From a phage: a stretch of DNA of 54,940 nucleotides. The position numbers and the translations under genes were made by a program. The stretch lies in assembly GCA_025829515.1 (NCBI GenBank), contig GCA_025829515.1_4865.2; one strand, 5' to 3'. The notes beneath the pieces are model-generated. The model worked only from the letters and a program-made list of their open reading frames with translations, was not told where the DNA came from and did no database searches. This document shows positions 6,508 to 25,249 of this stretch, piece after piece (within the stretch, counting starts at the first letter, position 1; the number at the start of each line of letters is the position of its first letter).

Positions 6508-6514
6508 GTCACTA

Positions 6515-7164: not shown

Positions 7165-7330
7165 TATACGCGTGCGCGTGCGCACACCCGTATCCTCCAG
7201 GATCTTTTAAAATATATAATAATATTAAATATAATAATACCTTTAGGTATTATATTTAATTATTATAATTATTTATATAAATAAATATATTAATATATTA
7301 AGATCTTAAAACGCGTGCGGGCGCGCGCGT
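7165..7330. other. AT-rich imperfect palindrome (~110 bp, >90% AT) flanked by alternating purine-pyrimidine GC tracts; candidate origin or DNA-unwinding element
   Basis: Left tract tatacgcgtgcgcgtgcgcacac (7165-7187) and right tract cgcgtgcgggcgcgcgcgtg (7311-7330) bracket a block centred on the hairpin aataatacc-ttt-aggtattat (7232-7252); GATC-containing repeats flank both sides. Confidence 0.45.
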
Positions 7331-9343: not shown

Positions 9344-9435
9344 ATCATGCGGGAGTCAGAAGCACGCAAGCTTGACCCCATCAATCGCCTGCGATAACGG
9401 GGTAGCGCATCCGTATAAACACGTTCAAGAATTCT

Positions 9436-9511
9436 AGGAAAGTGACGCAATTGGTAGCGTACCGGTCTCCAAAACCGGCTGTTTAGAGTTCGAGTCTCTA
9501 CTTTCCTGCCA
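9436..9511 (+). tRNA. tRNA-Trp (anticodon CCA)
   Basis: Hand-folded cloverleaf: acceptor aggaaag/ctttcct, D-stem acgc/gcgt, anticodon stem ccggt/accgg with loop ctCCAaa, 5-nt variable loop, T-arm tagag-ttcgagt-ctcta, discriminator G and encoded CCA. Confidence 0.8.
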
Positions 9512-9577
9512 CATTTAGCCAACAAGGCCATGATTCAAAGCAGAATGACACCGAATGTCTAACTGCGGAGAATAATC

Positions 9578-9820
9578 ATGAACTTGTATTTGCTAGAACG
9601 AACTGACGATATCGGGTATGATGAATTTGATTCCATAATCGTGGCGGCTCCTACGGAGCAAGCTGCGTGTGCAATTCCTCCCGACTGTGGCCATTGGATG
9701 GACTGCCGCTGGTTACCGAAAGAGCGCTGGGATGAAGGGCTTACCCTGACCGTTACTCTTATCGGTACTACGCACTATCCTGCTGGGACCGTCGTTCATG
9801 AATCGTTCAATGCTGGCTAA
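9578..9820 (+). CDS. hypothetical small protein, paralog of the 8280..8855 repeat domain
   Basis: 80-aa ORF starting MNLY like 8280..8855; GGAG RBS; followed by hairpin 9823-9840. Confidence 0.45.
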   Translation: MNLYLLERTDDIGYDEFDSIIVAAPTEQAACAIPPDCGHWMDCRWLPKERWDEGLTLTVTLIGTTHYPAGTVVHESFNAG

Positions 9821-10865
9821 ACAGTGGGCTTCGGCCCACTAACCCTATTCGAGCCGTGATACTTACTCAGATTGTGCGGGTTGATGTCCCGCATGAGCCG
9901 GTAGCAGCTCAGACCTACGGTAGACCAATAAATCCGTAGCAGCCAGGTACACAAAGTACCAGGTCGCTTGTACAGGATGCTGGGTATCTGACCGGTCATA
10001 ACCTCATTCGATACGAGACACGTTTATGCATGAAATACTCCAGTACATCAGGATGTTGATTTCCAACGTCCGGTTCTGGGTATTCAATCATGTTTGGTTT
10101 ACAGGCGATGGGTTTTCCCGCAAGGGCCCCACTTACAGACTGGCGTCTCCACGACAACCGTCCCTAGGGGACAGGCAAGCACCGGCCCATTAAGCCGCTA
10201 CGCTACGCCTGTAAATCCACAATCTGATAACCGAATGGGATTGAGTTCCCAGTGTTAGGGTGACTGTGTGTCACCGTAGGCGCGGTACCTCATACGGCCG
10301 GTACGCCACGAATGTACGTGATAGCGGGTGGTGCTTGGAGACGCTAAGACCTGACCTTGCGGCCAGGCTCAGAAGAAGAAGTCCATCACCCGCATTCAGA
10401 AATGAATTTAGGTTAATTATTATTTATGGAAGTGATGAAATCGTTTACGTGATAACTTAGTAGTATGCAACGAACAATACCAGAGTGACTTTACGAGGTT
10501 ACTGTGGTATATGTCGGTGCGCCGGGCAACGTGTTGCCGCAGATAAGCCCGAGGGAGCTGAGTGCACTAACACACGCCGGGATGCATCGGCACCTTACAA
10601 TGGGAGCGCTGTCACCATCAGTGATGACAGGAGTGAAGGATTCGTACCTCACTCGACTGGGCGGAAGCCTGGGCGTTCCCCCATCTTCACATCATGGCCG
10701 GCTTGCCGGTTCAACGTAGACGTCTCGTAAGAGATTTCCAGTCAGGCAACTGATAACACACCTAAGCGTCGACCTTGGACGTATGGTGTCTGGTTAAGTC
10801 CCCCGAAACGGAAACCAGTAGGGGTGTGGTACGTTGAGTGTAACTATCATGATGCCATGAACAAT

Positions 10866-10935
10866 GGCTTTGTAGCTCAGGTAGGTAGAGCAACCTCTTC
10901 GAGGAAGGTCGCCGGTTCGAGTCCGGTCAAAGCAA
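10866..10935 (+). tRNA. tRNA-like element with canonical acceptor, D and T arms but a truncated anticodon arm (possible pseudo-tRNA)
   Basis: tagctcaggtaggtagagc D-arm and gccggttcgagtccggt T-arm are tRNA-typical, but only 14 nt (aacctcttcgagga) lie where an 18-nt anticodon arm should be; G1-A72 mismatch. Confidence 0.4.
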
Positions 10936-11009
10936 GAGCAGCGAAGTTAGAGGAATTAACACCCGACTCATAATCGGATATTTCGACGGTTCGAATCCGT
11001 CCGTTTGCT
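10936..11009 (+). tRNA. tRNA-like element, possible tRNA-Met/Ile2 (anticodon CAU), non-canonical D and acceptor arms
   Basis: T-arm gacgg-ttcgaat-ccgtc and anticodon arm cccga-ctCATaa-tcgga are recognisable; acceptor pairing imperfect and the 5' boundary is uncertain. Confidence 0.35.
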
Positions 11010-11390
11010 CGCCCCATTTGTGTTATCCTTATCCCGAAGGCATTCGAAATAAGACGCGTATCCACACACGGGTCAAGGGTAACACGAACCACTTCCGCGG
11101 TCACCGTGTCCATTGCCGCCTACCTGCATGGGCTGTCCTCCGACACGGTGACTTCGGGCCAACTTACAGGCCAGGGCCGTTTGGGTTTTTCTTACGCATC
11201 CATCCAGAGCCACCTCGCGCCCTAGTCTGTATACCCCTTTTCTGTTCCTGGTTTGCCAACTAAATCAATTAAGCCTGGTGCGTTGCCCTGGGAACAGAAA
11301 AACTTATTCGGTTACACACCGAACCCACCCACGAGGGATATGTCGTGGACTACCAATAGAAGCAGCAATAGTAGTAAGAAGGAAAGCAAC

Positions 11391-12215
11391 ATGTTTACAG
11401 TTAAACGTGTGATTGATGGTGACCGTATTATTACCGAACATGAAAAGGTACGTATCGGTGACCGTAAGTCTCGTGTATTCCGCGAGGCATTAAAAATGCT
11501 CGAGAACGAGCGCTTCGACATCGTTGTCGATGATGAAAAGTTAGCCCTTAATCCGGGGTTAAAACGCGTTGCCCCTGATGTGCCTGATCCGAACACCATG
11601 CATTTGTCTGACTACTATAGTTGGGCGTATCGCAGAGAGAAAAGTTGTGAAGACGCGCATTTATACTTAAAACAGCTGTTCCCTAACCTGGTATTGCCTG
11701 ACCATGATTCAGTCGGCGTTATTGATAACGACTATCAAACGTTTATGAACTATGTAGAGGCTAATCCGGGCGTAACTCGCATTTTGGTTTTAGCTGAAAA
11801 CCACAAGTCCACTGATGCTATTGTAAAACTGGTTATGAGCCAGCTTGCAGACGAAGGCACGATGTACAGCATCGACTACTATAAACCTTCTCCGGATAGC
11901 GATCTCGGTATTATTGTTTATACCTACGGTGAGTTACAACAGGTCGAACTGGAACCTGGTCCAGCGATGGAGTTCACCGACGTCCAGGAGCAGTCTCAGT
12001 GGGTTAACGGTGAGTGCGTTGTTACTGTTTTAAAAGGCGCGCGCCCTGGCGACCGGTCAGTCGATGAACTGATTGGCGCAATGTGCATCGAAGAAGAATC
12101 TGGATACGATCCTGATAACCAGATCAGTACCGGTGCGTTGTACGAACTGTTTTATAAAGGCGACGAAGTCTACGTGGTTAACTCTCACGGTAAGACTACC
12201 GACGTCCTTCGCTGA
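11391..12215 (+). CDS. hypothetical protein
   Basis: ORF track starts at 11253, but the first 46 codons are low-complexity; the in-frame ATG at 11391 has AAGGAAAG upstream. Confidence 0.5.
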   Translation: MFTVKRVIDGDRIITEHEKVRIGDRKSRVFREALKMLENERFDIVVDDEKLALNPGLKRVAPDVPDPNTMHLSDYYSWAYRREKSCEDAHLYLKQLFPNLVLPDHDSVGVIDNDYQTFMNYVEANPGVTRILVLAENHKSTDAIVKLVMSQLADEGTMYSIDYYKPSPDSDLGIIVYTYGELQQVELEPGPAMEFTDVQEQSQWVNGECVVTVLKGARPGDRSVDELIGAMCIEEESGYDPDNQISTGALYELFYKGDEVYVVNSHGKTTDVLR

Positions 12216-12305
12216 ATTAGCTAACGCCCAGTAGCTATGTTCCTGACGATTAGCCCTCGTCTGACCTTGTAAGACCTTGTAGATTTACATGCCAACACCA
12301 GGGAA

Positions 12306-12348
12306 GTCCTCACTCTTCGGAGTGAGGACAACTCTTTTATTTTTTTTG
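12306..12348 (+). terminator. rho-independent terminator
   Basis: Stem gtcctcact/agtgaggac with cUUCGg loop followed by a T-run. Confidence 0.65.
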
Positions 12349-12364
12349 TATTCCAAATATTCAC

Positions 12365-12380
12365 AGATAGATATTACCTA
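12365..12380 (+). promoter_or_regulatory. palindromic motif site A (agatagatattaccta, one mismatch to AGATAtTATCT core)
   Basis: Seven-member motif family; this copy is ~60 nt upstream of the 12439 start. Confidence 0.45.
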
Positions 12381-12438
12381 AGTGAGATGAGAAAGCCTCA
12401 TCTGAATTCCCCCAACTCGACTATAAAAGGTAAGCATC

Positions 12439-13386
12439 ATGTACAGACCAAGTAATCCTAGTGCTATTGAAGGATTAAACCAGGATGGCTTCAGCCTCGC
12501 AGAAGCAACCCGCATTCGACCTTTCTTACCTCGCAGATTCTTCCCTTTCGGTTCGTTATACAGAACGAATTTCGACGCCTGGGAAGCGATACGTGCTGTA
12601 AAAGATGCACTACAGTACAAGAACTTCGAATTCCGATTTGTTTTCAAATGGGTCAACGGCGAATTGCTCCACCACTTCGGATTCCAACAGAACGAGTTCA
12701 TTGAGTATACCTCACCTACGTACCACACCAGGTTCTTAAGTATCGAATTCGTTCGCCATTTCGGCGATGCACTCTTTACGGAACGGGCTACAGATGAAAA
12801 CCACGGACGTGGGCTGATGTTAACGAACGGCGCACTGCGCATCAAGATGAATCGTTTACGGGAAGCGTATAACCAGCTTATCAATCCTGAACCGGTAATG
12901 TTTCCAACTGTGGCTGATTTGAACATTACACCGCTCCAGTTACCTGTGGATGTGGATAGACCGATTCTGGCAATCCACGCTCTCCAGGCAGGCTATGCAA
13001 ACTGGTATAAAGAGCACAGTCTCCCGAACACCAGATTGAACATCGCACCGTTTGAGTTGTGCCTGTTCTTAACGTTACGCAAACAACTCGAGCCAGAAAA
13101 CTTAGACTTACGTTATCTGGCTAAAACAGATAGCGGTAGTTACTACCCAACGACCTGGATGCTGGCGGCTGTATTACCCGGCGGTGAAATTATCGGTAAC
13201 CCAGTCACCGATGTTCAACAGTTACCATCACCGTTAACACCACCGAAAGATTCAATCTATCCGTACGCTTCGTGGTACGCGAGCAGTATTGGCGTGAGAT
13301 GGTTAATGTTACACGTTCCTGAAGAGGTCTATAATTTATTCCCGCATGAGCAATGGCTCCGTGCGTATGAAAATCGGTTTGGTTAG
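12439..13386 (+). CDS. hypothetical protein
   Basis: 315-aa ORF downstream of terminator and motif site A. Confidence 0.6.
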   Translation: MYRPSNPSAIEGLNQDGFSLAEATRIRPFLPRRFFPFGSLYRTNFDAWEAIRAVKDALQYKNFEFRFVFKWVNGELLHHFGFQQNEFIEYTSPTYHTRFLSIEFVRHFGDALFTERATDENHGRGLMLTNGALRIKMNRLREAYNQLINPEPVMFPTVADLNITPLQLPVDVDRPILAIHALQAGYANWYKEHSLPNTRLNIAPFELCLFLTLRKQLEPENLDLRYLAKTDSGSYYPTTWMLAAVLPGGEIIGNPVTDVQQLPSPLTPPKDSIYPYASWYASSIGVRWLMLHVPEEVYNLFPHEQWLRAYENRFG

Positions 13387-13400
13387 TAGTCGATGCTTTT

Positions 13401-13436
13401 GAGGGAACTTCGGTTCCCTCTTTTTTTTTCTTTTTT
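13401..13436 (+). terminator. rho-independent terminator
   Basis: Stem gagggaac/gttccctc with UUCG loop and T-tract tttttttttcttttttcacg. Confidence 0.65.
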
Positions 13437-13460
13437 CACGACTGCCTCAGAATCTTATAG
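13421..13460 (+). promoter_or_regulatory. terminator-tail/promoter-like cassette (TTTTTTTTTCTTTTTTCACG-N12-TCTTATAG), copy 1
   Basis: Identical 20-mer plus TCTTATAG box also at 19421-19459; sits 13-33 nt upstream of the next gene start. Confidence 0.4.
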
Positions 13461-13472
13461 GAGGAAGTTACC

Positions 13473-13889
13473 ATGATTACGCAGTGCTACTACCAGACGC
13501 AAGATTTATTTAAAGCATTGGAAGAAAATAAGCTACCCACGACTTTAAGACCGCAGTGCAGTTATTCAAGAATGCTTGCAAGTGAGGTCTTTCCGGTGCT
13601 AATGCAGTTACCTCAATTCCAACCGTGGCTCGACTCGCTAGATGTGGTAGATGTTGTGGCTATCTACACTGGGTCAGACACACCAACAATAAATACAAGC
13701 GAGTGTTTATCCCGTAGCGAATCGTCGGCGATAAATGAAATGCCGCAGCTAATGCCTTCTTTATTCGATTCGATGTGCGCTGCAGTTATGCAGAAACGAC
13801 TACCTTATGAGGAAGTATTCGCCATTGTGTTAGACAGCATCCACGCAATGAATTATAAACACTATAAAACCCTCGGAACCTTACACTGA
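13473..13889 (+). CDS. hypothetical protein
   Basis: 138-aa ORF; AGGAGGA 8 nt upstream of ATG. Confidence 0.55.
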   Translation: MITQCYYQTQDLFKALEENKLPTTLRPQCSYSRMLASEVFPVLMQLPQFQPWLDSLDVVDVVAIYTGSDTPTINTSECLSRSESSAINEMPQLMPSLFDSMCAAVMQKRLPYEEVFAIVLDSIHAMNYKHYKTLGTLH

Positions 13890-13956
13890 CTTTTTTACGG
13901 CAGGCACCTATCTTGTAGGGAGTCTGTGCTGTAATAGATTCCAAAGGAGATGCTCG

Positions 13957-14346
13957 ATGAAAAACAAACTGCGTCCGCTGGACGTGATTATGGCGCATCC
14001 GGATACCCTCAAGAAAATTAAAGTGGTCAACGAACTTGACCGTGGTCTCCTGGATACTATTCAATGGGGTTTTACTTTCCACCCCGATGAAGAGAACAAC
14101 ACGCGTCAATTAGATGTCTGCGACGGCGTAGAAATCGATTGGTCTTCTAACGAAGGCTTTGATGATGTCGTCGATTATGTTAAACAAGCCACCGTTCCGC
14201 CTGTGTTCCCAGTAGCGGGTTTAGCGGAACACACAATTTCTCTCCGCCGACTGGTTAACGCTCAACCAGAAATCGTGCGTGAAGGTGAGGCGTGGACGTC
14301 AGGCATTACCCACCATCTTAAGGATGTGTTGGGTGTTGCCGGTTAA
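13957..14346 (+). CDS. hypothetical protein
   Basis: 129-aa ORF; AAGGAG RBS. Confidence 0.55.
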   Translation: MKNKLRPLDVIMAHPDTLKKIKVVNELDRGLLDTIQWGFTFHPDEENNTRQLDVCDGVEIDWSSNEGFDDVVDYVKQATVPPVFPVAGLAEHTISLRRLVNAQPEIVREGEAWTSGITHHLKDVLGVAG

Positions 14347-14356
14347 AAAAGAAGAA

Positions 14357-14398
14357 GTACCTCTACGCGAGTAGAGGTACGGAATCTTTCTTTTTTTG
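14357..14398. terminator. bidirectional rho-independent terminator
   Basis: Perfect 10-bp palindrome gtacctctac-gcga-gtagaggtac flanked by an A-run upstream and T-run downstream; lies between convergent genes. Confidence 0.65.
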
Positions 14399-15211
14399 TT
14401 ACGACTTGAAGCGTCCACCGTTCATGTAGTTCCAACGGTTTCCGATGTTGTCGTTGTGGACCAGGCAACGTTGCATTTTCGGCAAGGTGTCTTCGAACAT
14501 TTGACCGGCGTCCGAGTAACCTTCAATAACGTTTCTGAAGGCACCGAACTCCATACCATTTTCCAGTTTACCGGAATCCATGTCGAAGATCATGGTGTTG
14601 TAGATATATTGCTTAACAGCCATGACTGCCAGCTCACCTACAACCGGATAGAATGCTGGTTTGATTTCGTTCATCTCCTGGGACAGTTCGTACTTCACCA
14701 CGAGTTTGGTAGAGTAAACGAACATGCCTGGGTCTTTGATACGAATGGTATTCGGACCGAGCACTTCAACTTCTGGTGAGGCGATACGCGGCATCGCGGA
14801 TTGACTATCAACCACTTGTTGAGTGGACGCCAGTACGCCAGAGGTTGCACCGTCCAGATACGAACCCGCGGGTGGCATGGTGTACGCCTGTCCGGCAACA
14901 GGTGTTACAGAGATATGGGCGTCCAGAATTGGGCGACCACCTGTTTTGATGTCGTCGAGATAATACACGCGACTGAAATAATCTTGCGTGTCGTTATCCC
15001 AAGGAACACCTTGCAAATCTACTTCTTGATACTGCCCCATTCTGGAGATTTCAGGGACCAGAATTTCACGAATAACGCGTTGTTGAATTTCGTTATCTAC
15101 AGAGCTTGCAATTCCCAGTAACTTGAGGTTTTCTGGAACAAAAGCCGCCTGTAGAATCGGGGCAGGGATATGCTGTCTGATTTTACGCAGGCAGTAGTCG
15201 ATAACATTCAT
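14399..15211 (-). CDS. hypothetical protein
   Basis: ORF track extends to 15241 via a TTG; the in-frame ATG (plus 15209-15211) has AGGAG 7 nt upstream, giving MNVIDYCL... Confidence 0.6.
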   Translation of the reverse strand: MNVIDYCLRKIRQHIPAPILQAAFVPENLKLLGIASSVDNEIQQRVIREILVPEISRMGQYQEVDLQGVPWDNDTQDYFSRVYYLDDIKTGGRPILDAHISVTPVAGQAYTMPPAGSYLDGATSGVLASTQQVVDSQSAMPRIASPEVEVLGPNTIRIKDPGMFVYSTKLVVKYELSQEMNEIKPAFYPVVGELAVMAVKQYIYNTMIFDMDSGKLENGMEFGAFRNVIEGYSDAGQMFEDTLPKMQRCLVHNDNIGNRWNYMNGGRFKS

Positions 15212-15332
15212 TCTAAGGCTCCTATGAAGCTCGTAGGACAACTCATACCATCGGGTAATGGGATAGCATTACCTGACATTAAAATACGTTTTACGACCTT
15301 TATGTGCGCACCATACTCGAAGAAATTTTGCA

Positions 15333-15345
15333 TAGATATTATCTT
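15333..15345. promoter_or_regulatory. palindromic motif site B (perfect core AGATAtTATCT)
   Basis: Located in the divergent intergenic region between the minus gene starting at 15211 and the plus gene starting at 15375. Confidence 0.5.
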
Positions 15346-15374
15346 CGTGAATTATCCTTAAGGAGCATTTCTCG

Positions 15375-15695
15375 ATGACGCGCATGTTCTTTAATTTCTC
15401 TCCAGGGACAAATGAGCTGATTGTGCCTGCGGACATGTTACTGTGCGCGATACAAGAAGTTATTTATCCCGGCACGCATGAGTTTCCACGCGAGTGGACA
15501 CGCATTGCCGAAAGTTATTTTGGCACGGAAGCGTGGTTTGTTATTTCGGCGTTGGGCCGAAACCATAGCTATCCCTTTCATTACAAAAATGGAGTTGTGC
15601 AAACGTGGTCAGAATATACCTCGAACCAGCTGCGGTTCATTCTAGCTTCTGGGGGCCTGTCGATGCTTCCCAGTACGCTACCGCTCTGCGGATGA
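15375..15695 (+). CDS. hypothetical protein
   Basis: 106-aa ORF; AAGGAG RBS; first gene of a tightly coupled run of small genes. Confidence 0.5.
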   Translation: MTRMFFNFSPGTNELIVPADMLLCAIQEVIYPGTHEFPREWTRIAESYFGTEAWFVISALGRNHSYPFHYKNGVVQTWSEYTSNQLRFILASGGLSMLPSTLPLCG

Positions 15696-16255
15696 GCCAA
15701 AAAGAACGCGAGATGTTAACTGTACAACTGTTACACACTGCGCTCGAAGATATCTTTTACTCCGTTCCGGAAATGCCTAATGCACGTATGGAACCTTTGC
15801 TGGAACCTTATACTGACGCTTTTAATCTCACGATGATGTTGGTGGCTGACCAGATCATACTTCCACCGAAAACAGTTCCTGTGGAACGTACACACGTTTC
15901 CAGTGGCGGTTTGGGTACTCCGGTTAATAAGACGAAAGAGACCGTAGCGATTTTACGTTCTACCGAATATCTTATCGGATTAGCATTCGAAGACTGTTAC
16001 AACAGTTTCCTGGACAGTATCCATGCGCTTGTGGAGAATGCTGTGAAAGCCGCCAAACACCCGTTTAATCGTTATGCGACGATTAAACTGGAACCACACA
16101 TAACCCGTCGTGGGCAGGTGCAATCTCTGGAGTTACAAATTGGAGAAGACATCAGATTCATCCACTACCGCCAATGCTTCCCAAACAAACGATATCGTCC
16201 GTCTGGTACTGATCGATCACATTGCCTCGACGGCATACGTCAGGATATTGAATGA
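15692..16255 (+). CDS. hypothetical protein
   Basis: ORF track start 15605 overlaps the upstream gene by 90 nt; the in-frame ATG at 15692 forms an ATGA overlap with the upstream stop. Confidence 0.5.
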   Translation: MSQKEREMLTVQLLHTALEDIFYSVPEMPNARMEPLLEPYTDAFNLTMMLVADQIILPPKTVPVERTHVSSGGLGTPVNKTKETVAILRSTEYLIGLAFEDCYNSFLDSIHALVENAVKAAKHPFNRYATIKLEPHITRRGQVQSLELQIGEDIRFIHYRQCFPNKRYRPSGTDRSHCLDGIRQDIE

Positions 16256-16268
16256 CCCCAGCGACATC

Positions 16269-16577
16269 ATGTTCAGCATGTATGATGTTAACACGGGGTT
16301 GAAGCATATCATTCTCTGTATGCTCGAATACATGATTCCGACATTTACAGAACACGGTGCGTGGGACACAGAAACAGTCTCACTGATTGTTAGGTGTTAT
16401 CGTCCCAGAAGTCATTCGCGGGAAATCCACACCATCGCGTCACACGTTCATCGTGCTATCTGTGAGGAAATGGGCATTCCTCCGAAAGGGTATCGGTATC
16501 ATTATAATCAAGCAGACAGAATTCTCCGTTTCATTCCACGTAAGGTAACCGATGTCTATGATGACGGTTTATACTGA
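16269..16577 (+). CDS. hypothetical protein (start uncertain)
   Basis: ORF track start 16110 overlaps the upstream gene by 145 nt; first in-frame ATG after the upstream stop is 16269. Confidence 0.4.
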   Translation: MFSMYDVNTGLKHIILCMLEYMIPTFTEHGAWDTETVSLIVRCYRPRSHSREIHTIASHVHRAICEEMGIPPKGYRYHYNQADRILRFIPRKVTDVYDDGLY

Positions 16578-16959
16578 GTTCGTGCGATTGACTTGCCGAC
16601 TCACCGCACTCGTCAAAGAGAATCTCGGCATCGATTACCAGGATGCTGCGGTAGAGCTTGACGACTATATCGAGCAAATTGTTCGGTTGCATGTTCTGCG
16701 GAAAAAATATGGCGTTATCGATAGCATGATACGCCAGTTCTTTATGGAGTATGTTCACGATAACCCAATCATTACTCCAACCACGTCGGCAAAATACTGG
16801 GCTCTTTGTCGATTTGAGTTGTTGATACGGGACACCGATTGCATCTGGCAAGCAATCGACGAGGACATGACTTATTTACCACAATCCGACTTCCTCCTTT
16901 GGCATGTAGGAGATGGTGTCTGGAAAATGTTAACTACAGGGGTTACTTACAATGATTGA
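16552..16959 (+). CDS. hypothetical protein
   Basis: 135-aa ORF with short overlap to the upstream gene. Confidence 0.5.
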   Translation: MSMMTVYTEFVRLTCRLTALVKENLGIDYQDAAVELDDYIEQIVRLHVLRKKYGVIDSMIRQFFMEYVHDNPIITPTTSAKYWALCRFELLIRDTDCIWQAIDEDMTYLPQSDFLLWHVGDGVWKMLTTGVTYND

Positions 16960-17461
16960 GCGATCTCATTTTTATATCCCCGGCTATCAGTTATTGGCTG
17001 GGCCGTTAACGGAGTTTTCGCCAAACGATGTGCTCCGCGAAGTGAATGACGATTTGAACTCGATAATCAATACCGCCATGAGCTTCGTGGAACGTGGAAC
17101 CATTGGTAGTGAGTTAAAGTTTATGATGAACAATACCTTTGGGTTTGTTTCTCGTACACTGAATGCGCACGGCGTTGTGTTGGAAAATGAGCAAGTAACC
17201 ACTTACGGCACCGCAATTCAAAACATCGGTCGTGCGTATATGACCGCCGTATCGCAGTCTCCTTATTGGTTTACTCACTACGGTCGTTGGGTCGGTGCAC
17301 AATACACAACGCGCAATCCGGCGGATGTCGAATTCTTATTAGACTATAACGGTGGTGATAAATTCCCACAGTTTGCCAGCCAAGAAGCGTACGAGCGAAT
17401 CACCCCACAACTTCTGCCTGTTATCGATTTGCTTATCGGTAATCTCGGAGGTCGTGTATGA
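16952..17461 (+). CDS. hypothetical protein
   Basis: 169-aa ORF; start overlaps the upstream stop. Confidence 0.55.
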   Translation: MIERSHFYIPGYQLLAGPLTEFSPNDVLREVNDDLNSIINTAMSFVERGTIGSELKFMMNNTFGFVSRTLNAHGVVLENEQVTTYGTAIQNIGRAYMTAVSQSPYWFTHYGRWVGAQYTTRNPADVEFLLDYNGGDKFPQFASQEAYERITPQLLPVIDLLIGNLGGRV

Positions 17462-17946
17462 GCGTTCTGTTTGATGTGGCGGATATTGCGAACCAATATA
17501 GCGCGACTCGGTTTTACGAGCATGTTCGTGAAGCGGCATTGCGTGTACTGGAAGCCAGTAACCTGGAGATTGATGAAACACAGATACGTGATTTTTATCA
17601 ACGTTTTGCGTTTGCGTATATCATCGGTGTGAAAACTCGTGACCCTTCGACGATGGTTGATTTGTTACAGGAAGACACGCTTGAACCTCTGGGCAATTGG
17701 GAGTTGGTGACCGATGGTCTGTCCGTTGACCAGTTCGCTAAGGAAACGTCTGTCGATACGACGTTTCTGGCAGCACAAGGTTCGCCCGAACAACATCAAG
17801 CCGCCTTCGGCGCTGCGGTAAGTTTGCTGGCCGAAGAGTTAACAAACTTAACTGGTTTTGCTGGACTGATAGAGTCGCTGTATCCGGGGCGATATCAAAC
17901 GTATGTAGGTGATAGTTTTAACGATGTGGTGTTAATCTGCGAATGA
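17458..17946 (+). CDS. hypothetical protein
   Basis: 162-aa ORF; ATGA start/stop overlap. Confidence 0.55.
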   Translation: MSVLFDVADIANQYSATRFYEHVREAALRVLEASNLEIDETQIRDFYQRFAFAYIIGVKTRDPSTMVDLLQEDTLEPLGNWELVTDGLSVDQFAKETSVDTTFLAAQGSPEQHQAAFGAAVSLLAEELTNLTGFAGLIESLYPGRYQTYVGDSFNDVVLICE

Positions 17947-18374
17947 AACTGTACATGACCATAGGCGAAGTCTTCAAATATGAGTCGTTGTTGGCACGGG
18001 CCGAGATTGCTGATACTAGCGAGATCGAGCCCGCTGTCGCTTATTTGTTTCTGGCCAGTTACGCCGAATTAACGGTACGTTCTATTGTTAATGGGCTAGG
18101 TAAGGGTAAGAACTTTCTTACTTTTATCCCCCCAGACCCTGCGTTGATACTGGAACAGTTGCGCGGGCTGTGGGGTACTGAAAAGGTGCTGCCTCTAAAC
18201 TGCTACAGCATGAGCAGTGGGATTAAGGATGATGTTCGGTTCTATGAAATCCTTTCCGTGATAGAACGTGTGTGGGGCATGGCTGGCTTGACTCCAGAAG
18301 ACGGAGCAAAAAAGACAAAGGTTTCACTCCTTATGAATGAAATTGGCAACGCACTCATCTGTGTTGAATGTTAA
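17943..18374 (+). CDS. hypothetical protein
   Basis: 143-aa ORF; ATGA start/stop overlap. Confidence 0.55.
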   Translation: MKLYMTIGEVFKYESLLARAEIADTSEIEPAVAYLFLASYAELTVRSIVNGLGKGKNFLTFIPPDPALILEQLRGLWGTEKVLPLNCYSMSSGIKDDVRFYEILSVIERVWGMAGLTPEDGAKKTKVSLLMNEIGNALICVEC

Positions 18375-18383
18375 GGAGTACGA

Positions 18384-18983
18384 ATGATCTACAAGGTGAT
18401 CGCCAACCACTTGATTAATGTGGACTTGGGGGTCGTGGGGTATCTTCCGGACGGTATGCGGTTTTTGGATTTGGTGGTTGACACCGTGGTCCGCCTACCG
18501 CGTATCACCGTGGAGATACCCGTAAAAGAATTGGACCAGGACGAGATACACGAACTTATACGTGAAACGCTGACTAGCTATACGTACGAGTTTCGTTGCA
18601 TGTTGCCTCGCACCGACCTTACGTTCTTGCACGACTTCTTTACGTTACTGACTGACGAGTACCGTCGGTGGAAGTTTAATGTTGCAATGGAAGCCAGCAC
18701 TGAGTCACATTTTAACGGGCTGACACCATTGTTAGATTTAGCGTTGGTGTACAAAGAGCAAGACAGTTCACACTGGGCTACGCTCAAGCACTACACGTTG
18801 GATCTAATGGCGACCGCCGTAACGGAGGCAGTTATGGCGCATTATGTTGAGCCGGTGAAGATGTTCTTAGAGGCGCATAATGGCGCTATCCGTACGTTGG
18901 TTCTCAAGGTGGACTTCCCGAAAACACCAGTGACCAATGCTTTGGATATGAGGCTGCTTATTGATGTTCCTGAGGAGGAATAA
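18384..18983 (+). CDS. hypothetical protein
   Basis: 199-aa ORF; AAGGAG RBS. Confidence 0.55.
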   Translation: MIYKVIANHLINVDLGVVGYLPDGMRFLDLVVDTVVRLPRITVEIPVKELDQDEIHELIRETLTSYTYEFRCMLPRTDLTFLHDFFTLLTDEYRRWKFNVAMEASTESHFNGLTPLLDLALVYKEQDSSHWATLKHYTLDLMATAVTEAVMAHYVEPVKMFLEAHNGAIRTLVLKVDFPKTPVTNALDMRLLIDVPEEE

Positions 18984-19393
18984 TGTTCGATTTACGCACA
19001 CTGGTCGCTGGGCAAAAAGTTAACATTGTTTACGACACCCCTTTGAAAGGGCAAGAGACGCGTGTAATTATTCTGGCAACCGGCGTTGGCTACGAGATGG
19101 CCAAAAGTTATATGGATGTGATGGCGGAGCAGAAGAATATCTACTCGTCCATCGTTTCCCAGCCAGAAGATAATGTGAACAAATACACGTATCTGATTTT
19201 CAAAGGTGTTGACGGCAAACCAAAAGTCGCTGCCGATGCCTGGATTCGTGATGTTCAGATTATCGAAAACACGAAGGTGCGCTTCACCGTCACCCTGGAT
19301 AACAAACAGGAGATTGACGACCTTAAACGTGCCCTGGCTGCCAATGGTTTCAATGACGTCGATTTTGAAATCGTTGAGAGTATTGCCGGTTAA
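18983..19393 (+). CDS. hypothetical protein
   Basis: 136-aa ORF; TAATG overlap with the upstream stop; followed by a terminator. Confidence 0.55.
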   Translation: MFDLRTLVAGQKVNIVYDTPLKGQETRVIILATGVGYEMAKSYMDVMAEQKNIYSSIVSQPEDNVNKYTYLIFKGVDGKPKVAADAWIRDVQIIENTKVRFTVTLDNKQEIDDLKRALAANGFNDVDFEIVESIAG

Positions 19394-19399
19394 AGTAAG

Positions 19400-19436
19400 C
19401 CCACTCTTCGGAGTGGGTTATTTTTTTTTCTTTTTT
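19400..19436 (+). terminator. rho-independent terminator
   Basis: Stem cccactc/gagtggg with UUCG loop and long T-tract. Confidence 0.65.
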
Positions 19437-19459
19437 CACGTATCCCGCAAGTCTTATAG
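19421..19459 (+). promoter_or_regulatory. terminator-tail/promoter-like cassette (TTTTTTTTTCTTTTTTCACG-N11-TCTTATAG), copy 2
   Basis: 20-mer identical to 13421-13440 with the TCTTATAG box at near-identical spacing. Confidence 0.4.
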
Positions 19460-19485
19460 CTGAGTAAAAAACCAAGGGGCCAGAC

Positions 19486-21765
19486 GTGGACTACAATTCA
19501 CCATTTCGTCTTAGTCAAGACGAGTATCATCGCGACATTGACGTTATCGATGCGTACTACGAACAACTGGCGCTCTACATTCATACCGTCACCAACGGGA
19601 AATATTCTTTGGAGTTCTGTCGACAGCAGGTCGAAGAAATGTTCCAACCTGGTGGTGAGTTAGTACACGAATTTCCCGTGTGTAAGATGTGGGTGCGCAA
19701 TCAAAAGACCGGCGATCGCGAAGAAAAATACACCACGGTAGATAAACTGTTCCGTACAGTGATTGATAAGCAGATTATCTCTGCGCCGTCGCTGACCTTT
19801 TATCTGCCTGAGCACGTCAAGCGCTCTAAGCTTGCTGAATTTACCGCAGAGAACGTGCGTAAGCGTGCGGTTGTTAAGAAAGAGATGTACGCAGCAGGTG
19901 CTGCGGGTAATGAAGTTCTGCGTATTAACAAAAAGAACGAACAGAACGCTGTTAAGACGTTGAACAACGGGATGTCGGGTGCATTCTCATCACCGTACAC
20001 GGTAATCTTTAACCAGTCTTCGCACTCTGTATTGACGTCAACCTGCCGTACGGCTACATCGTTCGGTAACGCGGGTAACGAACGTCTACTGGGCGGTAAT
20101 CGTCACTACGACACGCCGTCCCGTGTTATCGACCACTTACTGTCTATTGGTACACTGACTAACTTTGCGGAGTTCAAGAAGTGTATGGAACTCTATAACC
20201 TCCACTACCCAACAGTGGACGAGGTTATGGAAGTGGTTATGTACTCTGCAGAGTTTTACTTCCGTAACGACGAAGGGCTGGAGTTCATTCGTCACTACGT
20301 CGGTAATTGTAGCCCGCTGGTACGTGCAGCGTTTGTCTACATGGGTGACTTCTACCACCTGGCGAAATACAACGATGAATTCATGCGCGGATTTATCGGT
20401 GCGCTGATTGCCGAGGAGATGGAAGACGAGATCACCGATTGGGATGCTGCTGAGCGCTCTATCGACGGTGACATGCAGATCATTATCTCGCAGTTCCGTA
20501 CTGATATCGTGCCGTTAGGTAAGTCGTTCTCTGACGTTAAACTCAAAGACGAAAACACGAACAAAGCGGAACCGTGGGATAAGCAGGAAAAATACAAAGA
20601 GCTGATTCGCTCAGCGGTGTATCTGCAGAAAACCATCGGTAAGTACGCGTGCTTGATTCGTAATATCCTGACTACCAAAAACCTGCCGATTAACATTGCC
20701 AGGATGCCTGACGTGGTTCGTCGTGTCGGTGTGGTATCTGATACCGACTCCACGATGATGACTGCACAGTGGTGGGCACAGTGGTATACCGGTCAACATT
20801 ACGGTCGTGAAGCTACGCGCGTATCGGATGCGATGATTTATATTGCAACCCAGCACTTACGTCATCTGATGGCGAGTATGTCGGCGAACATCGGTGTGGC
20901 GAAAGAGCGTCTGTTTTTGTACGCAATGAAGAACGAATTTAAGTTCGACTCCTTTGCGTTAACCACAAAAGCAAAACACTACTTCTCCATCATCACTGGC
21001 CAGGAAGGACAATTGAAGTCCGACCCTGAGTTAGAAGTTAAAGGTGTGTCTTTACGTACGTCGAACATACCGCCTGTGGTCATGAAAGAGTTCAAACGCA
21101 CGATTAAAGAACTCTGTGAGATTGTAGCGCGCGGCGATAAGATTAAGATTCTGCCTCTGCTGGAAAAGGTTGCTGCAATTGAGCACGTTGTGGTGGACTC
21201 TATTCGTGCTGGTAAAGCAGGCTACCTGAAAACAACCAACGTCAAAGACCGTAGTGCGTACTCTGAAGATGATGAAAAGAGCTACCACTACCACCGCATG
21301 TACAACGCCATCTTTGGACCGAAGTACGGCTACCTGGACGAACCGCCTTATGACGCCGTGAAACTTCCGGTAAACCTGGAGAACAAAACAGCCGTTAAAG
21401 AGTGGCTGGAAAACATTAAAGACCCGATGATTAAGACCACTGCAACACGGTGGTTCGAAGAGAACAACTATCGCACCTATCGTACTCTGATACTGCCAGA
21501 GTTCTTGGTGGAAAACTTCGGTATTCCTCCGGAGCTGATTGATGCTGCAGACACACGTCGAAGCGCATTCTCCACAGTAGAACCTTACTATCACATCCTG
21601 GAATGTCTGGGTGTCTTCATGATGGACAAGAACAGAACTCGTCTGCTTTCGGATTACTACGGCGAGTCCGTAGACTCGGTCAAGGAAGAATTAGGTAGCG
21701 GCGAGTACGTTAAGAAATCTGAACGTGATGGAGAGGAAGAGGATGGGGAAGAAGCGGAGGAGTAA
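19486..21765 (+). CDS. large hypothetical protein (759 aa) with weak DNA-polymerase-like motifs
   Basis: GTG start with AAGGGG RBS; contains KTLNNGMSGAF (resembles family-B motif KxxxNSxYG) and VVSDTDS (resembles YGDTDS); acidic C-terminus; assignment not verified. Confidence 0.55.
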   Translation: MDYNSPFRLSQDEYHRDIDVIDAYYEQLALYIHTVTNGKYSLEFCRQQVEEMFQPGGELVHEFPVCKMWVRNQKTGDREEKYTTVDKLFRTVIDKQIISAPSLTFYLPEHVKRSKLAEFTAENVRKRAVVKKEMYAAGAAGNEVLRINKKNEQNAVKTLNNGMSGAFSSPYTVIFNQSSHSVLTSTCRTATSFGNAGNERLLGGNRHYDTPSRVIDHLLSIGTLTNFAEFKKCMELYNLHYPTVDEVMEVVMYSAEFYFRNDEGLEFIRHYVGNCSPLVRAAFVYMGDFYHLAKYNDEFMRGFIGALIAEEMEDEITDWDAAERSIDGDMQIIISQFRTDIVPLGKSFSDVKLKDENTNKAEPWDKQEKYKELIRSAVYLQKTIGKYACLIRNILTTKNLPINIARMPDVVRRVGVVSDTDSTMMTAQWWAQWYTGQHYGREATRVSDAMIYIATQHLRHLMASMSANIGVAKERLFLYAMKNEFKFDSFALTTKAKHYFSIITGQEGQLKSDPELEVKGVSLRTSNIPPVVMKEFKRTIKELCEIVARGDKIKILPLLEKVAAIEHVVVDSIRAGKAGYLKTTNVKDRSAYSEDDEKSYHYHRMYNAIFGPKYGYLDEPPYDAVKLPVNLENKTAVKEWLENIKDPMIKTTATRWFEENNYRTYRTLILPEFLVENFGIPPELIDAADTRRSAFSTVEPYYHILECLGVFMMDKNRTRLLSDYYGESVDSVKEELGSGEYVKKSERDGEEEDGEEAEE

Positions 21766-22121: not shown

Positions 22122-23189
22122 TTATTTTTCTTCTAGCTCTGTCGTCAACGGGATAATCAAATCCCGTTGGATAAAGTTATAGAAGGATTTAGTCAGACGT
22201 GTGAGGACTTTAGAGTCCACATAACGCGCCAAATCAACCAACATCGTACGTTTATGCTTTTCCATATTCCCCTGGTTGTATTGAAGACAAAACAGTGCCC
22301 AGTACCAGTTCACCATGTTCTGGTGCCAGGTGTTCTGCAGTGTTTGACCTGGTTCTCGAAAGACAATCAGTTCCAGTGCTGTGTGGCCTTCTTCATCAGG
22401 GTGTTGGAAGAACAATGGGATGTTGTTTAAGACTTGTCCCGGTAACGGGTTGGCAGCCAGTAGTTTACTACGGATGCCTTTTGCGTGCTTCACAGCTAAA
22501 GCTTGAAGCGGCGGAACAGGAATGACACGTAATGTTTCATCCGGTTCAATCTCTTTCCCGAAGGCTATCGCACGATGTATATTTACAAAGGCGATATCCA
22601 TGTAGCTCGGCAACATGCGAGAGATCACATGTCGTTGGAGATACACAGGTGTGGCAATAGGTTCGGTACCGCGACTGTAGTGCTGCTGACCTTTGACATA
22701 TTGCCAAAGCAAAGCAACCAGGTTGATTTCGATCACCGTAACACCTCGGGGCCGTCCGTCACCGAACTTCCAATTGAGGTTGGTATACTCGTGGTAGAGG
22801 TAACGTGCGGGGGTGTAGTCGCGGAACGAAAGGTCTGGATTTACTGGGCGGGCTACGAGAGAGATTACCTCATCTTGGCCCTGGATAAACTTGCTATTAA
22901 AGATTTGACCGTACTCACCAACAGACGTCAAGCGTAAGGCGTTACCGATCTGAACAAGTTTGCGACGGCAAGCCCATTCGATGTCTTCGTACTCTGGTTC
23001 ACCGGCATAGCCGATGGCAGACAACACCTCTTGCAACAAATGGCCATTACCAGCACTGCGATTAAGCTGTTCGTAGTAGTTGCGTATACGCTGGCTGTTG
23101 TTTTTTACGTGAGCCGCTAATGTTATAGCGGAGGGGTCCGTGCTGTGACCCTTTATGGCCACTTGGTTTAACTCGGCTTGGCTGAACAT
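22122..23189 (-). CDS. hypothetical protein
   Basis: ORF track extends to 23210 via GTG; the in-frame ATG (plus 23187-23189) has AAGGAG 7 nt upstream, giving MFSQAELNQ... Confidence 0.6.
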   Translation of the reverse strand: MFSQAELNQVAIKGHSTDPSAITLAAHVKNNSQRIRNYYEQLNRSAGNGHLLQEVLSAIGYAGEPEYEDIEWACRRKLVQIGNALRLTSVGEYGQIFNSKFIQGQDEVISLVARPVNPDLSFRDYTPARYLYHEYTNLNWKFGDGRPRGVTVIEINLVALLWQYVKGQQHYSRGTEPIATPVYLQRHVISRMLPSYMDIAFVNIHRAIAFGKEIEPDETLRVIPVPPLQALAVKHAKGIRSKLLAANPLPGQVLNNIPLFFQHPDEEGHTALELIVFREPGQTLQNTWHQNMVNWYWALFCLQYNQGNMEKHKRTMLVDLARYVDSKVLTRLTKSFYNFIQRDLIIPLTTELEEK

Positions 23190-23241
23190 GGCAGACTCCT
23201 TAGATTCCACATAGGAAGTCAGTCACAGTCAAAAATATCTC

Positions 23242-23256
23242 AGATTGATATTATCT
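23242..23256. promoter_or_regulatory. palindromic motif site C (cagattgatattatct, one mismatch)
   Basis: About 55 nt upstream of the minus-strand gene start at 23189, in a divergent intergenic region. Confidence 0.45.
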
Positions 23257-23395: not shown

Positions 23396-25249
23396 ATGGT
23401 AAAAATCGTTGACTCTAACAACAACGCTCAGCAGAACAACACTCAGACTCAAGACACCGCACCACTGGGCGGTCTGGGCAACGAGACTGTAAAAGTGCAA
23501 ACTGCTGTGCCGGGTACTTCTACTGTCAGCCAATTCGATAACGCATTTGGCATCCGCAACATCAGCACCTATGCAATGCACTTCGTCAACCTCCTGGACG
23601 AGCTGAAGAAAAGCAACGAATACCTCAACGCATTCCGCTGGGGCACCATCGCTGGCGTGGGTAACGAAATGGGTTCCGCGGCGTATGTCGCAGGCCAATG
23701 GCAGGGCCACTGGCTGTATGGTATCATCTTCTTTGAACGCGGTCAGTCTCTGCGTCTGAAAGAAACTACCAACAACGGCCAGGAAGACTACTACACCATC
23801 ACTGAACTGTTCAACAAAGACGTGCTGGCAGTAGTACAGAAAAACATCATGGAAGCGCATGGTCTGACCAATGCGAACTTCATGATCATCAACTCCGTAC
23901 CAGACCTGGGTAAAGTTCTGGATGCTGAGTGGGCACGTACTCTGATGGGTCAGATGATGATGGGCATCTTCGGTCGTATCGCAGGCTACCTGGGTACGCT
24001 GAACCTGCGTAAGCATGACCGTTATCAGGCTGCAGTAATGCCGCTGGAAGATGGTGCGGTTGTGGATGCTAACGGCCACGCACAACGTGCTGATTTCGCA
24101 ATCACCGTTGAGCACAGCCCAAGCAACGTATCCGACGCCACTCCGACTCTGCTGGACACCAATCAGGTACAGGTGTATCCGCGTGTATCCGGTACTGGTT
24201 TCGTCAACATGCGTTTCACCGGTCAGAAGCCTGTCGTTAACGGCGTCTACGACCTGAAACAGCTGCAGGCTGAAATCGTAGTAAGTCTGGTCGATTCTCA
24301 AACTGAAGGTGCAATGGCACCGTATGAACGTCAACTGCTGCTGCTGGCTGCATTTGCAGAAATCGCGGCAATCGGTGGCTGGCGTGACCTGTTTGTGAAA
24401 CGTCTGAACAAACAAGATCGCAAGTTCTCCCGTGTGGCAGAATACCTGTCCTGGGGTGCTGACGCTCGTCCTGATGTATCCAAAATCGACGGTAGCCGTG
24501 AAGCTATCGAAGGTTGCCTGGATATGTTCGCACCGCGTGAAGCAGCACTGGTAGTTAGCCATCGTGCCGGTAACGGTCTGGGTGGTCTGTCTACTATGCT
24601 GTCTGAAATTGCGGTCGGTTACGACAACTCTCTGAAACAGCTGCTCGCTATTCTGAATTCCATGTCCCCGCGTGATCAGAACGGCGAAGTTGTTGCAGCG
24701 ACCAGCTTCACTGCAGTATTTGCTTCTGCACTGAAAGCACAGCTGGGCGATGCCTTCAATGGTACCATCCATTGCAGCCACATCGTGAAAGCAGCCGTAC
24801 CGACTGTTTCCGGTGTTTACACCGGTACTGCACAGAAACGTAGCTTCCAGGATATGGACCTGATTTCCGTTGTTACCAAACTGGGTGATAACGCGAACGA
24901 CGTCTATAGCTACCTGAACGCACAGTCCTACAGCCACCGTGAACTGAACGAGCGTCAACAGCGTATCTACATGCTGAAACTGGCCGCTTCTCTGTTCGCA
25001 TCCAAAGCACCGCAAGCTACCGGTGAATCTCTGGATATGGCTATCAACCCGATCTTCGGTAAATGCCTGCTGGACTTCGTCCGTAACAACTGCACCTGGT
25101 CTATGACTGGTGTAAATGCCTACAACACGATGGCGACCTCTCTGTTCTTCAACAACGGTGGGGAAGACTTCACGCTGTCTGGCAACGGCCTGTCTGCAAG
25201 CGGTTCCGATTTCGGTCTGGGCGTGTCTCTGAGCAACTTCAAACTGTAA
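23396..25249 (+). CDS. abundant 617-aa protein; candidate phage-nucleus shell protein (chimallin-like) by synteny, alternatively a major structural protein
   Basis: Strongly biased codon usage (ctg, cgt, ggt, aaa) implies very high expression; AAGGA RBS; lies immediately upstream of the RNAP beta' N gene, as chimallin does in phiKZ; no sequence-level confirmation. Confidence 0.6.
   Translation: MVKIVDSNNNAQQNNTQTQDTAPLGGLGNETVKVQTAVPGTSTVSQFDNAFGIRNISTYAMHFVNLLDELKKSNEYLNAFRWGTIAGVGNEMGSAAYVAGQWQGHWLYGIIFFERGQSLRLKETTNNGQEDYYTITELFNKDVLAVVQKNIMEAHGLTNANFMIINSVPDLGKVLDAEWARTLMGQMMMGIFGRIAGYLGTLNLRKHDRYQAAVMPLEDGAVVDANGHAQRADFAITVEHSPSNVSDATPTLLDTNQVQVYPRVSGTGFVNMRFTGQKPVVNGVYDLKQLQAEIVVSLVDSQTEGAMAPYERQLLLLAAFAEIAAIGGWRDLFVKRLNKQDRKFSRVAEYLSWGADARPDVSKIDGSREAIEGCLDMFAPREAALVVSHRAGNGLGGLSTMLSEIAVGYDNSLKQLLAILNSMSPRDQNGEVVAATSFTAVFASALKAQLGDAFNGTIHCSHIVKAAVPTVSGVYTGTAQKRSFQDMDLISVVTKLGDNANDVYSYLNAQSYSHRELNERQQRIYMLKLAASLFASKAPQATGESLDMAINPIFGKCLLDFVRNNCTWSMTGVNAYNTMATSLFFNNGGEDFTLSGNGLSASGSDFGLGVSLSNFKL

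Follow-up and report, generated by a model that had tools for sequence, protein, structure and literature searches.

Terminator-linked bipartite elements of an SPN3US-like jumbo phage are candidate phiKZ-type middle promoters

We analysed a 54,940-nucleotide (nt) stretch of phage DNA (GenBank assembly GCA_025829515.1, contig GCA_025829515.1_4865.2; hereafter, the window), in which an earlier note had described a duplicated cassette, namely a 20-mer and a short box placed directly after a terminator hairpin, at 13421–13460 (site 1) and 19421–19459 (site 2). Each site probably combines an intrinsic terminator with an adjoining middle promoter of the phiKZ type, which a polymerase of the phage itself would read. 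This reading draws on the sequence features of the sites, a family-wide spacing, conservation across genera, and a match to the phiKZ middle promoter P78M, all of which were observed. The two sites carry identical 20-mers, as the earlier note had stated, but they do not form a simple duplication: they are two members of a larger family of about 12–16 bipartite elements per genome, with the layout T(4-6)(C)AC-R, 14–15 variable nt, and T-R-T-R (TATG, TGTG, TATAG, or TGTAG). The putative promoters are new for the SPN3US/Erwinia clade and of a kind already known.

Judged from its sequence, the window is that of an SPN3US-like jumbo phage (genus Seoulvirus) of the phiKZ-related group that encodes its own multisubunit RNA polymerases. 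Over positions 12000–21000, the window shares 98.9% identity with its closest sequenced relative, Escherichia phage vB_EcoM_Lh1B (Lh1B), and 96% with SPN3US itself, a Salmonella phage of the genus Seoulvirus with a genome of ~240 kb. Erwinia jumbo phages match at 60–80%. The assignment to the phiKZ-related group follows from several annotated RNA polymerase beta-like genes (virion and non-virion subunits) in the genomes of the closest relatives and from a homologue (window 31859–33493, E = 1e-13) of phiKZ gp68, which is described in the literature as the sigma-like (fifth) subunit of the non-virion RNA polymerase (nvRNAP). The annotation of the relatives and the gp68 homologue thus point to a pair of multisubunit polymerases with the fifth, sigma-like subunit of nvRNAP among their parts, as expected of a phage with phiKZ-type middle promoters. 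In the phiKZ-related group, the virion RNA polymerase (vRNAP) serves the early genes, nvRNAP serves the middle and late genes, and the host enzyme is not needed (PMC7598289).

The 20-mer TTTTTTTTTCTTTTTTCACG (T9CT6CACG) occurs exactly twice in the window, at 13421–13440 and 19421–19440, both on the + strand. No further copy was found in the window with up to 3 mismatches allowed; shuffled sequences are expected to hold 0.02 matches, and 0 of 100 shuffles reached 2. The 8-mer TCTTATAG is exact in the window only at 13453–13460 and 19452–19459, 12 nt (site 1) and 11 nt (site 2) after the 20-mer, in agreement with the reported gap of 11–12 nt. A c-UUCG-g hairpin directly 5' of both 20-mers was borne out by the folding energies (Table 1). 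The reported distance of 13–33 nt to the next start codon is correct at its lower end (13 nt, ATG 13473) and too large at its upper end, since the GTG at 19486 lies about 26–27 nt away. The literal strings were rejected as the definition of a class, because TCTTATAG with one mismatch is not enriched in the window (22 found versus 31 expected) and TTTTTTCACG occurs in the 240-kb Lh1B genome at no place besides the two orthologous sites. The genome-wide motif search proposed in the earlier note therefore returns a two-copy feature for the literal strings, and it is the degenerate bipartite pattern that reveals the family. As RNA, the cassette itself folds no more stably than expected by chance (z = −0.6 and +0.5), and neither site has an Rfam match. 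In IMG/VR, the exact cassette pattern was found in 8 stretches, all of them jumbo-phage-sized contigs of the SPN3US-like group or a fragment, and none outside that group.

Both hairpins stand at the ends of transcription units. The site 1 hairpin closes the upstream 315-amino-acid (aa) gene (12439–13386) and is kept in position across all relatives with differing stem sequences, and the site 2 hairpin closes an operon, the last gene of which (18983–19393) encodes an SH3-fold DNA-polymerase-associated protein. Both sites thus have a stable GC-rich hairpin and, immediately 3' of it, a U tract where a transcription unit ends, and termination is predicted there. The GC-rich UUCG hairpin and the T tract resemble those of intrinsic bacterial and phage terminators, whereas the T tract differs from that of ordinary terminators in being unusually long and bipartite (T9-N-T6 or longer) and in having a 3' end in common with the putative next promoter. 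Other terminators of the window have long bipartite T tracts without a downstream box (T9-A-T10 at 6515–6570, + strand; T9-A-T6 at 22069–22020, − strand), and long interrupted U tracts appear to be a house style of the terminators of this phage. Because these box-less terminators have similar tails, and because family members without a hairpin keep T5-6 only, the T9 and probably the C of the 20-mer are assigned to the terminator tail. T6-CAC-G would then be the upstream box, with the T6 serving terminator and promoter alike. The view of the whole 20-mer as a promoter part is thus reduced to about its last 10 nt, which do belong to a promoter-like unit.

The first clue to the family was that, among all terminator tails inspected in Lh1B, many run on into TTTTTAC. 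When the whole 240-kb Lh1B genome was scanned for TTTT[CT]?AC-N(n)-T[AG]T[AG] with n = 8–25, 21 matches were found at n = 15, compared with 0–5 at each other spacing; with TTTTT, the counts were 18 at n = 15 and 0–2 elsewhere. The shuffle expectation for the scan is 1.4 matches at n = 15–16. Nearly all raw matches (23 of 25) lie on the + strand, the strand of most genes. The scan was repeated on another genome, that of Erwinia phage Wellington, of which 150 kb lying outside the orthologous region of sites 1 and 2 were used. The peak was again at n = 15 and comprised 9 distinct sites, all 9 on the + strand and 6 of them directly after a hairpin and T tract; the Lh1B and Wellington genomes are ~70% identical to each other. 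In a matrix of 20 sites, the base after AC is a purine throughout (10 A and 10 G), a regularity that was not imposed by the search pattern and that accounts for the G of CACG in the 20-mer. About 60% of the members are fused to an intrinsic terminator, and the other ~40% have no preceding hairpin and only T5-6 before AC. The end of the box lies 26–40 nt 5' of an annotated start codon in 14 of the 21 strict-pattern sites of Lh1B and Wellington, and the other strict-pattern sites lie 75–119 nt away, plus a few outliers. The downstream genes encode, among others, the DNA polymerase, a UvsX-like recombinase, an SMC-like protein, an acyltransferase, and a putative transcriptional regulator; none of the genes downstream of the strict sites in these 2 genomes has a structural annotation. 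The elements are thus placed upstream of, and co-oriented with, mostly non-structural genes, as expected of phiKZ-type middle promoters. In two members, at Lh1B 171648–171673 and Lh1B 136932–136906 (minus strand), the initiator TATG overlaps the annotated ATG, which would imply a leaderless or mis-annotated gene start.

We compared the orthologous intergenic regions of SPN3US, SPAsTU, phiEaH2, Asesino, Huxley, Caitlin, ChrisDB, pEa_SNUABM_8, and Wellington, and, for site 2, also those of EarlPhillipIV and CR5. The site 2 comparison covers the genera Seoulvirus, Erskinevirus, Machinavirus, Wellingtonvirus, and Derbicusvirus, and that of site 1 and of the copy at 13891–13918 covers the first four. 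The flanking coding DNA of these phages is 69–82% identical to that of the window. The order of the parts (hairpin, T tract, (C)AC, unrelated spacer, and T-N-T-A-G) is kept in 12 of 12 phages at site 2 and in 10 of 11 at site 1, Lh1B being the exception. At site 2, AC and the box are separated by 15 nt in all 12 phages; at site 1, 8 phages have a separation of 16 nt and 2 have one of 15 nt. At site 1, the pairwise identity among 10 phages is 0.90 for the T-run plus AC versus 0.34 for the spacer, and TATAG is invariant (1.0). At site 2, the corresponding values are 0.96 and 0.48, and the box reads TATAG in 10 phages and TTTAG in 2. Across sites 1 and 2 and the 13891 copy together, the values range from 0.88 to 0.96 for the T-run plus AC, from 0.79 to 1.0 for the T-N-T-A-G box (0.94–1.0 at sites 1 and 2 only), and from 0.34 to 0.59 for the spacer. 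The box of the earlier note, TCTTATAG, thus contains the conserved core, T-N-T-A-G, and is not constrained over its whole length. The hairpin stems vary by genus with complementary changes in the two arms (CCCACTC/GAGTGGG, CCCCGC/GCGGGG, and CCTACCGC/GCGGTAGG), and the site 2 hairpin of the Derbicusvirus phages is linked directly to AC by a single T6 run. Two conserved boxes held at a fixed distance around a free spacer are the hallmark of DNA that is recognised by a protein, and not of DNA that has been copied from elsewhere. In Vibrio phage pVa-21, a hairpin and T tract were found 5' of the DNA polymerase gene, but no clear AC-N15-TNTAG.

Two other copies in the window were followed in the relatives. 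The 13891–13918 copy keeps the 15-nt spacing in 9 of 9 relatives examined, and its Huxley variant, AAATTAC, resembles the phiKZ form. The 23101–23128 copy lies antisense in the 5' end (first ~30 codons) of an open reading frame (22122–23210, − strand), and its boxes and spacing are invariant in 10 phages.

In the middle promoters of phiKZ, the motif 5'-AAanTTACc-3' is centred about 24 nt before the start. Two of these promoters, P62M and P78M, have in addition a TATG in the right place, with its G as +1, and P78M carries AAAATTACC (Yakunina 2015, PMC4666361). Differential RNA sequencing defined the middle motif of phiKZ as TACT, with an A-rich run before it and its centre 22 nt 5' of the start site; the 5' untranslated regions (UTRs) of phiKZ are typically of 31–40 nt, and early and middle promoters stand in tandem at gp54 (Wicke 2020, PMC8244752). 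In the phiKZ sequence, P78M reads AAAATTAC-C-AAATGTGTTAAATA-TATG, that is, TTAC, 15 nt, and TATG. It therefore has the same AC-to-initiator spacing as the window family (15 nt at site 2 and 16 nt at site 1, G13440 counted). If transcription starts at the fourth or fifth base of T-R-T-R(G), as predicted, TAC lies at −21 to −19 or −22 to −20, and one nt further at site 1. The family would then share with the phiKZ middle promoters an AT-rich box that ends in TAC and lies about 20–22 nt 5' of the start, in both cases in a phage that has two multisubunit polymerases. Tandem early and middle motif classes are likewise common to phiKZ gp54 and to the window and Lh1B. The window-family initiator is often TATAG, TGTAG, or TGTG, unlike the phiKZ TATG, and the window-family motif is much sharper than that of phiKZ, can be found without start-site data, and is terminator-fused in the majority of copies noted above. 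The phiKZ parallel as a whole draws on P78M and on text descriptions of the motif; no unambiguous location was found in the phiKZ sequence for P62M and P33M. Upstream of the phiKZ DNA polymerase gene, a hairpin is followed by a T-rich run ending in TTTTTAC, 15 nt, and AATGTG, an arrangement that is suggestive only as a parallel to site 2.

According to the mechanism that we propose, the UUCG hairpin and the first T run would form a factor-independent terminator that ends the upstream transcription unit, and a bipartite promoter for a phage multisubunit RNA polymerase would follow directly after it. The promoter would consist of the T(4-6)(C)AC-purine box, the free 14–15-nt spacer, and the T-R-T-R(G) initiator, with the start at the fourth or fifth base; its T-run would coincide with the final T stretch of the terminator tail. 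Transcription would thereby be restarted ahead of two genes, that of the 138-aa protein (site 1) and that of the DNA polymerase (site 2), and these genes could be timed independently of the preceding operon. We infer from the comparative data that transcription starts at the boxes, that a phage polymerase, possibly with an accessory factor, reads them, and that the timing is middle; the middle rather than the late class is suggested by the architecture and the gene content.

Several observations weigh against a middle promoter at these sites. (i) The TATAG of site 1 overlaps a GGAGG ribosome-binding site (13460–13464), which adds to the conservation of TATAG. (ii) At site 1 of Lh1B (5866–5896 of the extracted stretch), TCTTAATG stands in place of TCTTATAG and T8 in place of T9, and the box therefore reads TAATG despite the near identity of the two phages; the site 1 initiator box can thus change inside a 99%-identical lineage. 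(iii) The conservation of the 23101 copy is confounded by the coding constraint on the opposite strand. (iv) The run is T-rich in the window family and A-rich in phiKZ (exceptions are AAAATTTAC at 8232 and the AAATTAC of Huxley), and the base after TAC is a purine in the window family and C or T in phiKZ. (v) A TTAC-N15-TATG spacing peak is absent from 40 kb of phiKZ, the middle promoters of which are themselves poorly understood, purified nvRNAP having no activity on them in vitro (PMC4666361). (vi) Our literature search on SPN3US-like phages found no 5'-end or expression data, and initiation, the start base, and the timing are predictions.

A second motif class must be kept apart from the bipartite family. 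The AGATAGATATTA[TC]C(T) motif is strongly conserved and occurs about 12 times in Lh1B, sometimes directly after terminators. The AGATAGATATTATCT motif, which is much longer than and different from the flagged element, lies, among other places, at 31810 and 36969, ahead of the nvRNAP genes (the gp68 homologue at 31859 and a beta-like gene at 37014), and this early-type motif contains the phiKZ-like ATATTAC. The phiKZ early consensus TATATTAC, as an 8-mer, is not enriched in the window. The AGATAGATATTATCT class is likely the early (vRNAP) promoter class, and the flagged element would therefore be a second class. The suggestion in the earlier note of a second, distinct promoter class that is fused to terminators is supported, with the AGATAGATATTATCT class as the other one, by comparative evidence, namely the spacing peak, the strand bias, the evolutionary footprint, and the P78M layout.

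The elements could instead be phage-polymerase promoters of another class, either late promoters (nvRNAP, TATG-type) with an optional T-run or weak early (vRNAP) promoters, which we regard as unlikely. In its T-R-T-R form and in the purine predicted as the start, the initiator box is similar to the late consensus of phiKZ (T-3 A T G+1), and some members adjoin presumed early AGATAGATATTATCT promoters (Lh1B 74821 and 96823; window 23101/23242). However, the phiKZ late promoters have no conserved upstream box, whereas the window family is defined by one, and T-run-AC at a fixed 15 nt is the strongest signal in our data; the downstream genes lack structural annotation, and the motif is clearly unlike the AGATAGATATTATCT class. 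The late promoters of AR9 (A-11 ACA, 6 nt, and T A/G+1, read on the template strand of uracil DNA) are also bipartite, with an AC box upstream of a T-purine start and a jumbo-phage nvRNAP, but their box lies at −11 to −8, compared with about −20 in the window family, and they are uracil-dependent and have no T-run.

It is very unlikely that no initiation takes place, in which case the 20-mer would be a terminator tail and the TATAG region a translation or 5'-UTR signal on read-through transcripts. The box-less bipartite tails of the 6515 (+) and 22069 (−) terminators and the abutment of TATAG and GGAGG at site 1 fit such an explanation. A U tract alone, which the earlier note had named as the outcome that would refute its promoter, is nevertheless disfavoured: the copies without a hairpin (13891, 23101, and several Lh1B and Wellington sites) keep T5-6-AC exactly 15 nt from the box, the site 2 TATAG lies about 26–27 nt from the start codon, outside the ribosome-binding site, and is still conserved across five genera, and a rigid distance to an upstream DNA box has no obvious translational role. 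We give an equally small chance to an RNA-level or regulator-binding element, that is, a processing site or an operator of a phage DNA- or RNA-binding protein. Consistent with it are the perfect palindrome found in two Machinavirus phages (described below) and the possible need of the phiKZ middle promoters for an extra factor (PMC4666361), but no significant RNA fold was found. Moreover, the asymmetric and bipartite form, the free spacer, the co-orientation with genes, and the 5'-UTR distance to start codons are typical of promoters, and a factor-dependent promoter is still a promoter.

A host sigma-70 promoter, with TTCACG as −35 (4 of 6 matches to TTGACA) and TATAGG as −10 (4 of 6 matches to TATAAT), was rejected as highly improbable. 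Sigma-70 promoters use spacers of 16–18 nt, whereas the spacer here would be 14–15 nt; a consensus scan called neither site; and the family has an invariant G where T at −7 is needed and boxes reading TGTG, TGTAG, or TTTAG. In addition, phiKZ-type phages transcribe without the host polymerase (PMC7598289, PMC4666361). Recent duplication or gene conversion of functionless intergenic DNA, which the identical 20-mers, the co-varying T-run lengths (T9/T9 in the window and T8/T8 in SPN3US), and the restriction to Seoulvirus of a site 1 CAC like that of site 2 might suggest, is scarcely credible and is already largely refuted by the comparative data, since both sites occupy the same positions in at least four genera with differing flanks, spacers, and hairpins and the 11–12 nt between 20-mer and 8-mer are unrelated in the two copies. 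Homogenisation between the sites within Seoulvirus is possible; it would account for the 20-mers being exactly identical but would leave the existence of the elements unexplained.

A promoter for a T7-like single-subunit polymerase was also considered and rejected. The T7/T3/SP6-type promoters (..CACTATAG+1GGAGA) likewise have TATAG followed by G-rich GGAG/GAGG, but only TATAG(G)GAG is common to both: the region of about −17 to −5 is variable across the relatives, the AT-rich −17 to −13 part is absent from the window family, and the conserved upstream box of the family is about 8 nt more distant. The 13891-type copy of Erwinia phage Caitlin reads ACCCTCACTATAGGGAG, which is identical at 16 of 17 positions to the core of the T3 promoter consensus. 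This match is confined to one lineage and may be due to convergence or chance.

Beyond the middle promoters favoured above, a broader proposition, to which we assign a low probability, would be that the element is a conserved middle-promoter code of nucleus-forming jumbo phages (TAC box, 15 nt, and T-R-T-purine; weak in phiKZ and sharp in the enterobacterial clade) and that termination and re-initiation are mechanistically coupled at the junctions. In such a coupling, the common T run would hand the just-terminated polymerase, or a factor travelling with it, to the adjacent promoter. Which enzyme form or factor reads the phiKZ-like middle promoters has been open since 2014–2015, purified nvRNAP being inactive on them in vitro (PMC4666361), and a 2020 review held the middle and late promoters of phiKZ-like phages not to be bioinformatically predictable (PMC7598289). 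The same architecture, with a rigid 15-nt spacing and strong cross-genus footprints, is sharp enough in the SPN3US/Erwinia clade to be recognised from sequence alone. It yields a testable promoter map of about 12–16 sites per genome, including that of the DNA polymerase gene, as well as defined mutation positions and an in vitro substrate better than the degenerate phiKZ sites; if the coupled code were true, this would be a clean substrate for finding the middle-promoter factor or polymerase form. Engineering of these phages may also profit from the compact junctions of terminator and promoter, used as insulating parts.

Table 1. Features of the two sites, further family members, and early-type motifs in the window
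Feature	Position	Strand	Details
Site 1 terminator hairpin, GAGGGAAC[UUCG]GUUCCCUC	13401–13420	+	8 base pairs (bp); −14.1 kcal/mol; z = −4.0
Site 1 T9-C-T6 tract	13421–13436	+	5' part, terminator U-tract; last T6, also putative promoter T-run
Site 1 upstream box T6-CAC-G	13431–13440	+	Family consensus T4-6 (C)AC R
Site 1 spacer	13441–13455	+	Sequence variable; 16 nt from C of AC to TATAG
Site 1 initiator-like box TATAG	13456–13460	+	Predicted start A13459 or G13460
Downstream gene 1, 138-aa protein, function unassigned	13473–13889	+	PHROG 9322; orthologue of SPN3US ACQ60_gp260
Site 2 terminator hairpin, AGCCCACUC[UUCG]GAGUGGGUU	19398–19419	+	9 bp; −16.1 kcal/mol; z = −5.3
Site 2 T9-C-T6 tract	19421–19436	+	Terminator tail plus putative promoter T-run
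Site 2 upstream box T6-CAC-G	19431–19440	+	TTTTT.AC invariant in 12 phages of 5 genera
Site 2 initiator-like box TATAG	19455–19459	+	Exactly 15 nt past AC; predicted start A19458 or G19459
Downstream gene 2, divergent family-B DNA polymerase	19486–21765	+	Pfam PF20286, E = 4e-284; phiKZ gp50, 34% identity, E = 1e-148
Third member, TTTTTTAC, 15 nt, TGTAG	13891–13918	+	No hairpin before; 39 nt 5' of 129-aa gene 13957–14346
Fourth member, TTTTTTAC, 15 nt, TATAG	23101–23128	+	268 nt 5' of 617-aa gene 23396–25249
Further member, TTTTTTAC, 15 nt, TGTG	7387–7413	+	Gene-poor tRNA region; same site at Lh1B 93–118
Candidate member, AAAATTTAC, 15 nt, TATG	8232–8255	+	phiKZ-like A-rich form; 25 nt 5' of ATG 8280
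AGATAGATATTA-type motif	12365–12378, 23242–23255, 31810–31823, 33226–33239, 36969–36982	+	Near-palindromic variants near 15320 and 23335

Further observations concern the other copies and their surroundings. The Machinavirus orthologues of the 13891–13918 copy (2792–2805, 2815–2828, and 2779–2792 of the extracted stretches) read CTC(A/C)CTATAGGGAG, and in ChrisDB and pEa_SNUABM_8 this copy is the perfect palindrome CTCCCTATAGGGAG. The 23101–23128 copy sits 5' of two early-type motifs and of the 617-aa gene, which occupies the synteny position of the phiKZ shell protein gene gp54; synteny is the sole link, as neither BLASTP nor phmmer against solved structures detected homology of the 617-aa protein to phiKZ gp54. 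The region 6500–11250 of the window is gene-poor and holds a tRNA-Trp (9436–9511), two weak tRNA-like Rfam matches (10866–10935 and 10938–11009) for neither of which ARAGORN made a call, and promoter-family candidates at 7387–7413, 8232–8255, 10444–10467, and 10490–10513. A group I catalytic intron (26680–27001, + strand; Rfam RF00028, 69 bits, E = 1e-15) separates two RNA polymerase beta-like gene pieces, at 25332–26840 and about 27044–27283; the beta-like gene is annotated as "beta subunit 1" and "beta subunit 2" in Lh1B and as a single uninterrupted coding sequence at the orthologous position in the SPN3US RefSeq record.

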